Shown: positions 1 to 15,000 of the stretch, piece after piece
Layout of the letters: each line of letters begins with the position of its first letter
Numbering within the stretch: the stretch's first letter is position 1
NCBI GenBank assembly: GCA_013335095.1
Contig: JAAXWF010000003.1
Coordinates: forward strand, 154,048-218,047
DNA length: 64,000 nucleotides
Reading direction: 5' to 3'
Origin: a candidate division WWE3 bacterium
GTDB lineage: Bacteria; Patescibacteriota; 4484-211; GCA-002791395
Program-made: the position numbers

Positions 1-3000
1 AACTCCCGTTATTAACTGATGCTGAAATTTCGTATCAAATTAGTCAAAGTAAACAATCTTTGCTTAATCAAGGAATTCATGTACAAACATTTGCGACTCC
101 CTTTGGCGCGTATGATAATCGTGTACTGGCAAGCGCATTAAAATATTTTTCGGCACATCGGGGCTATTGGGATCGTTCGGCGCTAAATGTTTGGCCATAT
201 AATCCGTCGGTTATTCAGGTTCAATCTGTTGATAGTGATACGACACTCCAATCGGTACAGTCGTGGATTAATCAGGCCCAGTCTTCGAACGCTTGGTTGG
301 TGTTAGTCTTCCATGATATTTTGCCGCAACAAAATCCCCAAGATGAGCATGCATCAACAACCTCAATGCTTCAGTCGATCGTCTCGTATATTTCTCAAAC
401 CGGTATCACCGTTTCGACCGTTGGTAACGCACTTTCATTAACTGGTGCTAATCTGATTATGAACGGCAGCTTTGAGCAAGGACTAGGGGGGTGGAGTACT
501 GATGCTTCGACACTGGTATCGGTTAATACTAATGGTAAAGGGTCATATCCGACTCCAAAGGCATCGCTTTTAATCAATGCAAATAGCTCAAAATCGATCC
601 ATGCCTTTAGTGAACCCGTTACGGTAAATAATGCAAATGAGTATATTATGCGAGGTTTTATTAATGGTGTTAGTCTTCAGACCGGAGAGACCGGTTTTTA
701 TATAGATGAATACGATGGCAATAACAATTGGTTATCAGGTCAGTGGATGGGGGCATACCGCGCTGGTGAAGCGTATTACGTGTCAAAAACGTATAAACCG
801 GCATCTTCATCGGTTAAGAATGCTCGAATACAAATTTATTCTTTAAAAGGGTCTAAAGGAAAGGTCTATGTTGATTCAATTACACTGACTCCATCCTCGA
901 TCGTCATATTACCTTCACCAACTGCAATTCCTACGCCAACAGCGACCGCTACTCCGACTGTTAGCCCGACTTTTACACCGACGCCAACAATTGTTCCTAC
1001 AGTAACACCGACCATCGTGCCTTCACCAACTACATCACCTAATTTAGTCACTAACCCGAGTTTTGAAGTCGTAAATCAAGGATTTGCTACCAGTTGGACC
1101 AAGGATTCTACCGCATGTTCAGTTGATTCCACATCTCATGGAAATGATGGCACCAATTCAATCAAAATAACCACGGCAACAAAGGCAAGTCATTTATTTT
1201 CATCCGTTATTGCGGTTGATCCAGCAGTTAAATACCAATGGTCATATTATGTAAATGCAGTTACGCGAAATGGCGAAATCGGCTTTTATATCGATGAATA
1301 CAGTTCCGGCGGAGTGTGGATCTCGGGCCAGTGGAAGGGGCAATTAACCACAGCGCAAAAAGGAGAGTATGTGATTAACTACACTCCAACGTCCAGTAAC
1401 GTGAAGCAAATTCGCTTACAGTTCTATATTCAACCACAAGTTAATTCTGAAGTGTATTTCGATTCAATTAAGTTGATCAAACAATAGTTAATCCCAGACC
1501 TGCTGTCGTGTAACTTGTGCGTATCGCGTAGTATTATTGTTATGGGATTTTTAAATCGATTATTGATGTATCCATTTTTATTGGCGTTATATGCGCCTGT
1601 TTTTATCGCTTTGGCACTCCTTATTGCCGTGACATTACCCTCTATGAAACAACCATTACCGGTTACGCCGACACCAACGCCACCAATTATTACCCAGTCA
1701 ATCATTAGTCGTCACAAAATGTTAAAAGATGTCGGTGAACCGTTTATTGATCACTTGGGTTTAACTCCAGATGACTTCAAACAAATTAAGGATGCTGGAT
1801 TTACGTTGATCGAAGGAAACTTTGATATCTGTGCTTCGGATGAAGATGTTAAATACTTTTTAGATCAAAGCCAATCCCATGGTTTGCTCGCCGTTATGCC
1901 AGCAGGATCGGGAGAAGCTGAATGGGGTTATCAGTGTGATGTCGACCCGGTAAAAGGGCAGTATCCGGTATGGCAAAAGCAACAAGTACAATCTTGGGTT
2001 AAAAAGTGGATGTCGCATCCTGCTCTATACGCATGGGATACTTCAAATGAGGCTGGGGGGAATTTCCCATTTGGTCAAGATTTATCGTACCATGTTACGG
2101 CTGAGCAGCTTAATCAGGCATATACCGATGTAAAAGCGATTGACCAGAAGCATCCGGTTATGATTCGGATGAACGGCTGGTACTTTTACGATAATGAAGA
2201 AAACTTTTTTGATAATGGTAATCCGTTCGCTAAAAACGTTGCCGATATCGTGATGCTTAATGCATACAGTAATGTTGATGAATATTTTCCTGATTTTGTT
2301 TCAACTGTAGTTAGCAGAGCGCGTGCATCAATACTTAAAATTGAACCGTCAGCAGCATTTATTGTTGCGTTAGGTGTATGGGAGGAGCCACCACTATGGT
2401 TTCTTCCTACTCAAGAACATTTACAATTGGACTACAATCAAGCGATCGCATTTGAGAAAGTTACTGGAATTGCATACTTCAAATATGGCGCATCATCGTC
2501 AGAATCAGAGTGGTTTATTCAAGATGATGACCGAGGTGCTCCCGCATTATGGCAGTTTATCTCTCGATTACCTTAGTAAATCAGCACTCGATTTAGGCTT
2601 TTATATAGGGCTTATCGTAAACTTAACCTTTGACTCTTTTCATAAAATGTACTTTAATGAAGTAACGAGTAATCGATTACATGCCTAATAAAAAGAGACT
2701 ATTGTTACATTCATTCCGTACGCTTTTTGTACGGGTTTTTCTAACGTTTGTTTTATCTGTAGTGATCCTTTTTATATCATTAGGTTTCTTTGAAGCTGGT
2801 AAATCATCGGCTGCATCGACTACATTCACTTCGCGTTCTGATTGGAACAGTGGTACGTCTACCAGTGTCGAATCAGACACTCGGGCTGGTGATCTTCAAC
2901 TCCAGGCAGATGGTGTTTGGGGGCCTCGTAACCTCGATACTCCGCCAGAAAACGTTACTACCGGTTCTGCATATGTTGATGTAGGCGATTACATTTATTC

Positions 3001-12000: not shown

Positions 12001-15000
12001 TGTCATTAATGGAGCGGACAAGGGAAGTCGGGTTTATGAAGGCCCTTGGTATGCGTTCAAAGGAGATAAAACAATTGTTTTTAACCGAATCCTTAATTAT
12101 GGGTATCTTTGGCGGTACCTTTGGATTGATATTCGGTTATGGCGGAGGACAACTAGTCAGCCTTGCATTATCGGCGTATTCGTTATCGCAGGGAGGGGAT
12201 TCTATTAATATTAGTAGTCTGCCATGGGAACTCATATTGGGCATCCTGGGACTATCACTTTTTGTCGGCTTAACTACTGGACTCTATCCAGCAAGACGAG
12301 CTACTCGTATCTCTGCGTTAAATGCATTGCGTTACGAATAACCGCATGCGTGTAAAATAGTAACGGAAGACTTTAATAATATTTTTCTATGAATTACCTT
12401 CCAATAATATTGACCGGCTTATCAACTGGTGGTTTAGCATGTCTTTCTGTGCAAGGTGGTTTATTAGCGTCGATATTATCTAATCAGGTTAAGCAATCCT
12501 CATCGAATTCAAAAGCTTCGTATCCGTTCGTTATGACTGTCTCATTTTTAGTATCTAAGCTTCTGGCGTATATTATTTTAGGAGCTTTACTTGGTCTTTT
12601 AGGCAGCTCGATGCAACTTTCTGTGCAAACTCGTGCCATTATTCAATTGCTCTCTGGGGTTTATATGATATTAGTAGCGTGTAATATATTGGATCTGCAT
12701 CCGTTATTTCGTTATGTTATTTTTCAACCACCAAAGATATTAAGCCGATATATTCGTAATACTTCGAAAAAAAGTGATATGTATGCTCCTATCTTACTCG
12801 GTATAACAACAATATTTATTCCTTGTGGCACGACATTGGCAATGGAGGCTATGGCGATGAGCACGGGGAGTATGGTTCATGGATCCTTAATCATGGGGTC
12901 TTTTATTATCGGCACGACACCCTGGTTTATGGGGATCGGATGGATTACTCAATCACTTTCGGCAATTCGCCGGCAGTATTTTTTTGTAATCACCTCAATA
13001 ATTCTTATTTATTTAGGTGGTGCAACAATTCGCGGCGGCATCAATCTGCTTGGTATTACGTATCCAAACTCTCAAATTACCCAGCACGACCACGTAATAT
13101 CTTCAGGAACCGATACACAGACCTCAGGTCCGGTGCAATTGCATGATGGTAAACAAGTCATTGATCTTACGGTACTACCGGATGGGTATTTACCGAACCG
13201 CTTCCAAGTTCATTCAGGTCAGTTAGTTGAAATTCATTTAAAAACGAGCAGGGTTTATTCGTGTGCCCGGGCTTTTGAGATCCCAGCATATAATATTGAG
13301 AAAATACTTCCAGAAACAGGTGAAGATATAATAACTTTTACCCCGACGCAAAAAGGTAATCTAACATTTTCATGCTCTATGGGAATGTATAACGGGGTCA
13401 TCGAAGTATTATGAAACATGTCGAAACAATAACTATTTCGGTTGAAGGATTACATTGTAGTTCCTGCATACTAATGATCGAAGGGGAACTTGAGGACCTT
13501 GAAGGTGTTAATCAGGCAAATGGTAATTATGCTCAATCTACCATTCGGATATCTTACGATCCGTCATTAGTTGAACAACAAACCTTGCGTGAAACTATTC
13601 AACGATTGGGATATGAAATTGGAAAGTAAACTATTTAATTTTTAGTGTGTATGTTATGATATTGTAGTATCTACAAGTATGGAGCAATATAAAAGTACGG
13701 CCAAAGACGTCTTTTCGCATTTGCTAGCAATAGTAACTCTTTATGTTGCTGTTGTGAGTAGTATCTCATTGCTTTTTCAATATATAAATTTTCAATTTCC
13801 GGATCAGCTCAACTTTTCAATTCTCGGCATCACCGAAATTATTCGTACATCTGTATCGGCTATCGTAATTGTATGGCCGGTCTATTTATTCATGTCGTGG
13901 CTTATTGCAAAAGATGAAGCGGCTCATCCCGATAAACGTGAGATCTGGGTCAGAAAATGGCTGTTGTACTTCACGTTATTCATAGCTGCTATAACTATGA
14001 TCATTGATTTGGTAGTTCTTGTGTTCAACTTTTTGGGCGGAGAAATCTCTATTCGATTTTTCCTTAAAGTCGTCGCGGTATTAGCTGTCGTTGGGTCTGT
14101 CTTCGCATTCTATTTGTGGGATATACGAAGGACTCTTGTTCCTGGCGATAAAAAACGTCAGTTATATGGCTATATCTCGACTGCATTATTGGCAATAACT
14201 GCTATAGCGGGATTCTTCATTATCGGTTCTCCGACTAAACAGCGTCAGATTAGGTTTGATGAACAGCGCGTATCTCATCTTCAACAAATTCAGAGTCAGG
14301 TTGTATATTATTGGCAGACTAAGCAGTCACTCCCGAATGATCTCACTCAATTAAATGATAATGTGAATGGATTTACCGTACCAACTGATCCAGAAAATTA
14401 TAGTTCGTATGAATATAACGTTAAGGAAAAGACTACGTTCGAGTTATGCACCACATTCACCCAAAAGAGTTTAGTTAACGCTGTTCCTCAAGCTTCTACT
14501 AAACCTGTCGGTATTGATGAACTTGCCAATAGTAGTTGGATACATGATGCTGGGCATGTATGTTTTAGTCGAACCATTGACCCAGATAAGTACCCGCCAA
14601 TCGATAGTCAGAAAGTACCAGCGGTACCACTATAAATTATGCATAGGTTTCATTCACTTACTCCTAATATTATGGTCGAAAATGTATCCGATACAATAAA
14701 TTTTTATAGAACCATATTTGAGTTTGAATTAGTCAGTAGTGTTCCAGGTGAAGGCGAAGAATACCAGTGGGGATGCGTTGAAAAAGATGGGATTCAATTA
14801 ATGTTTCAATCACGAAAAAGTTTAAGTAAAGAAATACCCTATTTTACAGAATTACCAATCGCAGCTAGTCTAACTTTTTTCATTAAAGTATCCGGCATTT
14901 ATGAGTTATATCAACGATTAAAAGTTTCATTAGAAGTTGTGAGTGATTTACACACTACAACATATGGTATGCGAGAGTTTGCCGTTCGTGATTTGAACGG

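Follow-up and report, generated by a model that had tools for sequence, protein, structure and literature searches.

In a 64,000-nucleotide stretch of DNA from a candidate division WWE3 bacterium (contig JAAXWF010000003.1, positions 154,048 to 218,047; the whole stretch is referred to here as “the window”), we have analysed a three-gene unit that encodes a giant Kelch- and Fn3-containing protein, an ATP-binding cassette (ABC) ATPase and a MacB-fold permease. The comparison with related loci, conducted from both ends of the unit, has revealed that the ABC pair and the C-terminal part of the giant accompany each other across distant genomes, which supports an ABC pair that is dedicated to the giant and not a free-standing housekeeping module. 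As far as can be judged from sequence, the conserved partner of the pair is the C-terminal Fn3 stalk of the giant together with its terminal helix, and not the Kelch region. Our best reading is that of a surface fibre found throughout the Patescibacteria, in which a variable head is joined to a conserved stalk and tail that a dedicated ABC complex of type VII would hold or actuate.

The unit consists of three open reading frames (ORFs), all of which start with ATG:

2681..9823, + strand: giant surface protein gene (2380 residues), from the ORF, its translation, the public gene call and the Pfam matches to Kelch, fn3 and Pur_ac_phosph_N.
9825..10664, + strand: ABC ATPase (279 residues), from the translation, the Pfam match to ABC_tran and the nearest solved relatives.
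10668..12341, + strand: type VII (MacB/FtsX-fold) ABC permease (557 residues), from Pfam, a profile search of the Protein Data Bank (PDB) and an AlphaFold2 (AF2) model compared with Foldseek.

The raw sequence reads TAA-A-ATG at the giant/ATPase junction (9821-9827) and TAA-GCT-ATG at the ATPase/permease junction (10662-10670), and the public gene call, made independently on this DNA, yields proteins identical to ours, of 2380, 279 and 557 residues; the spacings of 1 and 3 nucleotides, which a preliminary description of this DNA had reported, are thus borne out by the ORF scan, the raw sequence and the public call alike. In the related loci, the corresponding junctions are 4-nucleotide overlaps or gaps of 2-26 nucleotides. 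The close spacing and the order of the genes place the tail of the giant as the final part of that protein to be translated, just before the ABC proteins, from the same message; it is the intergenic spacing that suggests a single transcript for the three genes, and a promoter and terminator scan of the locus was uninformative on transcript structure. Neither a second ABC pair nor a second giant of the same type occurs within the 64-kb window. The permease is 100% identical to an NCBI protein from a candidate division WWE3 bacterium, in keeping with an origin in the Patescibacteria.

Our search for relatives of the permease covers 568 relatives, with one genome per species; the locus counts refer to the best 80 of the 568, nine of which are too short upstream to be judged, leaving 71 informative loci (individual related loci are denoted by an L and a number). 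A giant Fn3/Pur_ac_phosph_N protein was found beside the ABC pair in all of the first six permease homologues, which come from different sources (6/6). In 69 of the 71 informative loci, the neighbouring giant carries the conserved C-terminal module of the window protein (residues 1518-2380, referred to as “Cmod”), with 35-53% identity over nearly its full length, and in 63 of these 69 loci it immediately precedes the ATPase, in the same orientation. The other six loci are variations on this arrangement: a 0.5-kb gap (L070), the insertion of a histidine kinase and response regulators (L035, L047, L074), a giant that is located downstream (L027, as also in L004) and a giant on the opposite strand (L048).

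The reverse search, a metagenome scan that is anchored on Cmod, has given 31 strong matches. Immediately downstream of Cmod, the ATPase is present in 28 of them, with the permease after it in every contig of sufficient length; a second giant follows in L118, and L120 is too short for a decision. The ABC pair also accompanies three Cmod-like genes of greater divergence, and none of about 45 weak, generic Fn3 matches has it, which serves as an internal negative control. The gene order is kept in 88 of 97 modules, and all-against-all clustering of the flanking ORFs has revealed no other conserved gene family, the recurrent small clusters being antisense shadow ORFs. In addition, JBAYIT01, CAZCAQ01, JAJTYI01 and CAZESB01 have two permease loci each (the pairs are L039 and L056, L048 and L081, L027 and L066, and L011 and L050), and at least three of these pairs consist of complete modules. 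The preliminary description had proposed a dedicated ABC module that acts with the giant and had asked whether the three-gene unit is conserved; the proposal is supported by the linkage in either direction (69/71 and 28/31), and an ABC pair that is conserved independently of the giant, which would have spoken for a generic module, is not what the relatives show.

The module is found in records labelled WWE3, WS6/Dojkabacteria, Doudna-, Collier-, Woese-, Shapiro-, Beckwith-, Moran- and Nomurabacteria, as well as in Saccharimonadales metagenome-assembled genomes (MAGs), with the reservation that many MAG labels are unreliable. The size of the Cmod family has been taken from an exhaustive search, which gives 1381 cluster representatives at E<=1e-30; the best 150 of these 1381 matches are in proteins of 622-6953 residues, and the full-length matches end a few residues from the C-terminus of the protein. 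No functional name occurs among the Cmod homologues, which are labelled as hypothetical or as “fibronectin type III domain-containing”. Across 65 modules, the mean pairwise distance of Cmod (0.49) is no greater than those of the permease (0.53) and the ATPase (0.51), and the Cmod distances track the permease distances (r 0.67, Mantel p 0.001); the unit is therefore co-inherited, with the stalk under machine-like constraint, a degree of conservation and tracking that is unusual for an adhesin spacer.

Several related loci contain additional genes next to the module. A CHASE4/PAS histidine kinase is located between the giant and the ABC pair in L008:6187-9069 (the same DNA as L074), L035:5926-8157 and L047:4295-6430, with two response-regulator genes alongside the kinase in L008; in another eight loci, a related kinase follows the permease at a distance of up to 2 kb, and a PAS-type kinase is nearby in 14 of the 80 loci overall. 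These inserted or neighbouring kinases may represent a regulatory or signalling link. In L026, where no giant is nearby, the ATPase is immediately preceded by a gene (6434-7129) whose product ends in ..TLQTCDPPGT, resembling the sortase active-site motif (TLxTC). In the Shapirobacteria relative L007, the module is followed by TrbC, TrbL, a VirB4-like ATPase and an M23 peptidase (12205-17971) and preceded by a relaxase-like gene, so that a mobile element may carry or adjoin the module in this relative.

The giant has Pfam matches to Kelch_6 (E 1e-34), Kelch_1 (E 2e-21), fn3 (E 7e-11) and Pur_ac_phosph_N (E 1e-10), and its parts are arranged along the gene as follows:

2681..2818, + strand: N-terminal leader, with a basic n-region, a hydrophobic segment (residues 19-37) and then SSA|AS, from sequence and hydropathy.
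2888..4516, + strand: Kelch beta-propeller block 1 (residues 116-565), with 11 blade motifs about 45 residues apart, from Pfam and the motif count.
4538..5209, + strand: first copy of a beta-sandwich and Fn3 unit (residues ~620-843), from BLAST against the starts of the relatives' Cmod and an internal match.
5258..7210, + strand: Kelch beta-propeller block 2 (residues 907-1385), with 10 blade motifs, a tandem duplicate of block 1, from the motif count and self-comparison.
7232..9820, + strand: conserved C-terminal module, Cmod (residues 1518-2380), from identity with relatives and an AF2 model.
9740..9820, + strand: C-terminal tail ITPKATDSALDLVISSLSEIFSFLKGL, a linker motif and then a terminal amphipathic helix, from translation, conservation, AF2 and the hydrophobic moment.

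The preliminary description had regarded the propeller-rich giant as the partner of the ABC module; the giant stands as partner, and the Kelch region has been rejected in that role, given that it is shared with a single relative (L006, with the same architecture at 52% identity over the full length), and the part common to all the others is limited to residues 1518-2380. The conserved 863-residue C-terminus with its helix, the tandem duplication of the Kelch region and an extra N-terminal helical pair in the permease were not noted in the preliminary description. The duplication (residues 36-835 against 827-1674, 30% identity) accounts for two propeller blocks with 21 recognisable blade motifs in total, each followed by a beta-sandwich and Fn3 unit; the first of these units (residues ~620-843) is a paralogue of the start of Cmod, with positions 4745-5185 matching Cmod residues 2-157 in the internal comparison.

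Cmod itself, of about 860 residues, is composed of one beta-sandwich domain, about eight Fn3-like domains and the tail. Its AF2 model, calculated with 40 homologues, has a mean predicted local distance difference test score (pLDDT) of 87.8 and consists of all-beta domains in series, with a C-terminal helix at Cmod residues 845-862; a fold search with this model has returned generic Fn3/Ig arrays only, such as titin-like proteins and cytokine receptors. The last ~27 residues follow, in 73 unique sequences, the consensus S[IV]DTVTITPKAT[DE][NS]AL[DN]LVIxNLxxxFGFL, with the stop codon 0-9 residues further on. Divergent lineages keep the same plan (..IIGRASDSVLTIILNSLQKVFGF and AIIGRASDSVLTIILNSLQKVFGF), and the window giant and its relatives alike follow the family pattern [IV](T/G)(P/R)(K/A)..A(L/V).L(V/I)(I/L)..L...FG(F/L). 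The helix is amphipathic, with a hydrophobic moment of 0.41 and a mean hydrophobicity of 0.43. Compared with sortase and exosortase signals (LPXTG, PEP-CTERM, GlyGly-CTERM), the tail is without the motif, the hydrophobic span and the basic cluster, and its helix has acidic or polar residues at two or three positions. As the preliminary description had stated, the C-terminus is not toxin-like: the Pfam and NCBIfam searches have found no toxin or enzyme domain in it.

At the other end of the giant, the hydrophobic segment at residues 19-37 has a mean Kyte-Doolittle value of 2.8 and is followed by a possible signal-peptidase site (SSA|AS). The hydrophobic segment of the signal anchor that had been proposed earlier is thus present, and the leader could equally be a signal peptide; a reading of the sequence has found no cysteine-containing lipobox in it. 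In most relatives, the leader consists of a transmembrane segment followed by ..IFA|xD, a sequence similar to the sites of signal peptidase. With a cleaved leader, the sole conserved candidate for an anchor would be the C-terminal tail. Many of the relatives' giants (e.g. L014, L027, L058, L082, L083) share a common leader in which K-K-I-T-I-A-K-W-Q-F-N stands immediately before the hydrophobic segment and ..PKIFA|xD..W.F after it; it resembles the extended signal peptides, a specialised type found on other large adhesins, and this motif is not clearly visible in the leader of the window giant.

The N-terminal parts of the giants vary from one relative to another: their heads contain Laminin_G_3, DUF2341, Big_13 or Fibrinogen_C domains, or nothing recognisable. 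In some lineages, the head is also the target of a diversity-generating retroelement (DGR). In L007:2215-5698 (the same DNA as L039), an Avd gene, a 116-nucleotide template repeat and a reverse transcriptase are located directly upstream of the giant, and the variable repeat is found at residues 408-447 of this 1623-residue giant, just before Cmod, with 16 of 16 differences at template adenines. A like arrangement occurs in L046, L042, L053, L101, L064, L108 and L054, with adenine-specific mismatches of 5/5 to 17/17, so that in eight loci in all a complete cassette accompanies a variable repeat inside the giant, just N-terminal of Cmod. The diversified segment ends in GFRCA, an ending that we take to be typical of the lectin-fold targets of such retroelements. 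The targeting of the head by these retroelements identifies it as the exposed, ligand-binding part of the protein, which is hypermutated in some lineages, and lends indirect support to the idea of attachment to a host or prey. The window giant has no DGR cassette, and uses Kelch propellers. In L079 and L034, a DGR also adjoins the module, with the variable repeat in a different upstream gene.

The ATPase matches ABC_tran (E 1e-30) and has intact motifs: Walker A (GPSGSGKST), the signature (LSSGQ), Walker B (IIIADEPT) and the H-loop (VTHD). Its nearest solved relatives are Spr0694 (5xu1_A), MJ0796 and LolD, and its best NCBIfam matches (LolD, DevA and FtsE) are all under their curated cut-offs. 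The permease matches FtsX (E 6e-20) and MacB_PCD (E 2e-13, residues 102-220) in Pfam; a profile of its family finds YtrF best among the PDB structures (E 4e-34), then MacB, Spr0695 and LolF/C/E, with no FtsX chain at E 1e-3. The AF2 model of the permease (pLDDT 77) contains TM1 at residues 99-134, an extracytoplasmic domain at 135-405 and TM2-4 at 406-547, and Foldseek places it with MacB, Spr0695, LolE and YtrF (E 1e-15 to 1e-19), FtsX being at ranks 47-48. The curated NCBIfam thresholds are missed on the FtsX side (FtsX_Gneg 35.8 bits against 255, FtsX_Gpos 35.2 against 225, FtsE 181.6 against 264.85) as well as on the Lol side (lolCE 50 against 362, LolD 198 against 308), and that of MacB is also missed widely. 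The permease is thus of the MacB/LolE/YtrF type; of the earlier designation “FtsX/MacB-type”, the second half has stood and the first has not. Two of its parts are of importance here:

10668..10907, + strand: extra N-terminal helical pair of the permease (residues 1-80; helices 2-45 and 52-73), from AF2 and family conservation.
11070..11882, + strand: extracytoplasmic domain of the permease (residues ~135-405), from AF2 and the MacB_PCD match.

The extra helical pair precedes the canonical TM1 and falls outside the alignments to the solved MacB, LolC/E and YtrF chains; F28, L32, Y35 and P51 are conserved in the permease family. Within the extracytoplasmic domain, the loop at residues 222-284 is disordered, and most relatives have a cysteine-containing insert of ~150-200 residues at that position; an SH3-like insert, suspected from sequence in the long permeases, had no Pfam support at E<=1 and has been dropped. 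The fold of the permease and the adjoining LolD/MacB-type ATPase place the pair in the type VII ABC superfamily (MacB/FtsX fold), and the ATPase adjoins the permease in 76 of the 80 loci, i.e. in all those whose contig extends upstream of the permease. No membrane-fusion (HlyD-family) adaptor gene has been found among the window neighbours, the six annotated related loci or the conserved flank families. As to an anti-phage defence system, PADLOC has given generic ABC-ATPase matches only, and this candidate has been set aside.

We propose that the giant would be exported by the Sec pathway via its N-terminal leader, which would be cleaved, and that its N-terminal part would serve as an exchangeable, ligand-binding head, here made of the two duplicated Kelch propeller blocks, which may bind surface glycans of a host or partner cell. 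The C-terminal ~860 residues, i.e. one beta-sandwich and about eight Fn3-like domains with the amphipathic helix at the end, would form the stalk, with the head distal. The ATPase and the permease would form a type VII complex that performs mechanical work at the outer membrane face, with no solute transport; the characterised ABC systems of the MacB fold (MacB, LolCDE, FtsEX, BceAB, HrtBA) act by mechanotransmission at that face. The base of the stalk and the terminal helix would dock on the permease dimer, most likely at its extracytoplasmic domain or at the extra helical pair, so that the complex anchors the fibre to the cell, and ATP hydrolysis may alter the conformation of the fibre or the hold on it. 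It is because of the two-way linkage of Cmod, the invariant terminal helix and the production of the tail just before the ABC proteins that we consider the base of the fibre to be the part that the complex engages. To this reading, in which the complex acts as anchor and actuator, we assign a probability of roughly 0.5. The extrusion, remodelling or release of the surface structure by the ABC module, as suggested in the preliminary description, is to be taken as a mechanistic proposal.

A number of observations count against such an anchor. Two permease loci, L026 and L045, have no neighbouring giant, and L115 is a true exception in the other direction, a Cmod gene without the ABC pair. In L020, L021, L022, L048, L066 and L110, two tandem giants share a single ABC pair, an arrangement that is at least as compatible with a catalytic handler as with a fixed anchor. 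Co-regulation alone would also give a conserved gene order. The export and orientation of the fibre, its physical contact with the permease and the effect of ATP hydrolysis are steps that we infer, and the tail helix that is to make this contact has a low-confidence pLDDT of ~50 in the AF2 model. Lastly, the hydrophobic segment of the leader is long (19-24 residues) and may stay uncleaved, in which case the head end would be anchored and the tail would be far from the membrane.

The strongest alternative gives the ABC pair the part of a handling enzyme rather than that of an anchor. In the manner of LolCDE or HrtBA, a hydrophobic segment of the giant, either the terminal helix or an uncleaved leader, would stay in the outer leaflet after Sec export and would be pulled out by the ABC complex, and the fibre would be freed to the cell wall, the surface layer, the medium or a host cell. 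The substrates of type VII systems are handled at the outer face of the membrane, LolE with a bound lipoprotein and the haem extractor HrtB are among the nearest folds, and the tail is moderately hydrophobic and amphipathic; the loci with tandem giants, where one ABC pair may serve two giants that each have their own tail, favour such a release. On the other hand, a catalytic handler needs no tight, near-stoichiometric translational coupling, the tail, with 16-20 residues of which two or three are acidic or polar, is short and polar for a membrane-embedded segment, and an extraction handle alone would not explain why the whole 860-residue stalk is conserved like the ABC proteins. We consider extraction possible, as a minority view that deserves to be kept in mind.

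A further-reaching reading is a new kind of ABC-powered surface organelle, where a MacB-fold motor would be mechanically coupled through the Fn3 stalk and helix to a giant fibre that grips the host cell with an exchangeable or hypermutable head, with ATP serving to tense, retract or release it. The insertions of histidine kinases and response regulators in some lineages hint at the reverse direction as well, i.e. that binding at the head could be signalled inward. If true, the organelle would imply active control of episymbiont attachment; we put it forward tentatively, and on balance find it doubtful.

It is also conceivable that the giant and the ABC pair are physically independent and merely co-regulated: the pair would expel, or give resistance to, a small molecule, a peptide or a lipid, as the database label “ABC-type antimicrobial peptide transport system” would have it, and would share an operon with the giant through the same need, such as host contact. 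MacB-type pumps have roles of this kind, the source annotations of the permease homologues read “antimicrobial peptide transport system permease” or “lipoprotein release”, and the contact between giant and permease is one that we infer. The linkage, however, persists at 35-50% identity and through rearrangements, whether the giant is downstream (L004, L027) or separated by insertions (L035, L047, L074); it goes with Cmod and not with the variable head; the ABC pair is absent beside generic Fn3 proteins; and an adaptor gene of the MacAB/YknXYZ type is missing from the loci examined. These observations make independence of the two unlikely. Least of all can we accept a generic FtsEX or LolCDE housekeeping module that lies beside a giant adhesin by chance, a reading suggested by the names of the best ATPase matches and by the FtsX Pfam domain of the permease, and refuted on present evidence by the widely missed curated thresholds, the low rank of the FtsX structures, the linkage to the giant and the duplication of the whole module in some genomes.

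Around the three genes, the window contains other clusters. Directly downstream of the module, on the + strand (12389-14635), a DsbD_2-cupredoxin fusion, a small HMA (heavy-metal-associated) ORF that the public gene call contains and a membrane protein with DUF5671 resemble a copper- or redox-handling cluster, which is not conserved beside the module in relatives. DUF5671 genes are typical of candidate phyla radiation genomes. Upstream of the giant, on the same strand (60-2576), are found a polysaccharide deacetylase/CBM_4_9 protein that extends past the window start (589 residues in the public call) and a 344-353-residue protein that matches no family; in L006, which has the closest relative of the giant, neither gene is kept at this position. 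A resistance-like cluster at 22540-29305 includes an FmrO-type 16S rRNA methyltransferase, a VanY D-Ala-D-Ala carboxypeptidase, a metallo-beta-lactamase-fold protein and a serine beta-lactamase-family protein. Between 44000 and 64000, the G+C content rises from ~0.39-0.42 to 0.44-0.53, with its maximum at 48-50 kb, and this region, where many short ORFs (120-220 residues) have no Pfam match and no RNA family match is found, may be foreign or mobile DNA.

The Patescibacteria make up a large share of bacterial diversity, and those that have been cultivated live in attachment to other microbes; next to nothing is known, type IV pili aside, of how they hold their hosts. The module is widespread, with 568 permease relatives and some 1400 stalk clusters, is conserved like a core machine, and carries exchangeable binding heads, some of which are hypermutable. 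The locus is a concrete, testable candidate for an attachment apparatus, and suggests an ATP-driven surface attachment system that has not been described. A new class of protein partner would be added to the mechanotransmission (type VII) ABC family, which until now has been known to act with regulators of hydrolases, with lipoproteins and with small hydrophobic molecules.

Among the known systems, FtsEX with its partners (EnvC, PcsB, RipC) is the best functional analogy for a complex that anchors and actuates a fibre: it is a non-transporting type VII pair that binds a secreted partner via a helical element and passes ATP-driven movement on to this partner. The present pair falls outside FtsEX by its FtsX and FtsE scores and by its MacB-type extracytoplasmic domain, to which the extra N-terminal helical pair is added, and its partner is an Fn3 fibre of 1000-4400 residues with a single terminal helix, and not a coiled-coil regulator of cell-wall hydrolases; no hydrolase domain was found in the giant with Pfam and NCBIfam. 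LolCDE, HrtBA and YbbAP share the fold, and what they act on, at the outer face of the membrane, is the hydrophobic handle of a protein or ligand. The pair differs from LolCDE in its lolCE and LolD scores, in a single, homodimer-type permease gene in place of LolC and LolE, in a presumably monoderm organism and in a giant whose leader has no lipobox.

The closest solved sequence relative of the permease is that of Bacillus subtilis YtrEF (PDB IDs: 9o9x, 9o9y), also from a monoderm; the match is limited to the C-terminal FtsX domain, and the ytrGABCDEF context (a repressor and a second ABC system) is absent here. The papers found on B. subtilis connect YtrBCDEF with competence, biofilm formation and the thickness of the cell wall and continue to call it a putative ABC transporter, and therefore no function is transferred from it to the module. 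MacAB-TolC, Spr0693-0695 and YknXYZ share the fold of the ATPase and the permease (5gko, 5lil and 5xu1 are the top structural matches), but here the ATPase and the permease are separate proteins, the neighbour that is conserved is the giant, and no adaptor gene was found in the loci examined, which separates the module from MacAB-type and Gram-positive MacB-like pumps. The adhesins of type I secretion (LapA, SiiE, RTX) are likewise very large, repetitive surface proteins beside their own ABC system, with a functionally important C-terminal end; those systems have an exporter of the HlyB fold, a membrane-fusion protein and an outer-membrane channel, with substrates that lack an N-terminal signal, whereas the module has a MacB-fold ABC pair and a giant with an N-terminal leader, and is not of that type. 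It is also distinct from the Bce-type modules (BceAB-RS): the permease has four canonical and two extra helices against ten, the BceB structures match its model poorly (TM-score ~0.3), and the module of the window has no kinase.

With the DGR-diversified, lectin-fold surface proteins of candidate phyla radiation bacteria, the module shares eight relatives of the giant that are bona fide targets, the window giant itself not being one; in the literature searched, we have not found DGR targets that are linked to a conserved stalk and an ABC pair. Likewise, in those portions of the literature that our full-text searches reached, we have not found a description of the partnership, of the stalk with its terminal helix or of the extra helical pair of the permease. 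The parts, i.e. the type VII ABC complex and the Fn3 fibre with lectin-like heads, are known, and what appears to be new is their partnership, the stalk module and the extra helical pair. We therefore rate the module as a mechanotransmission ABC system with a new class of protein partner, of which the giant of the window is a Kelch-headed member.

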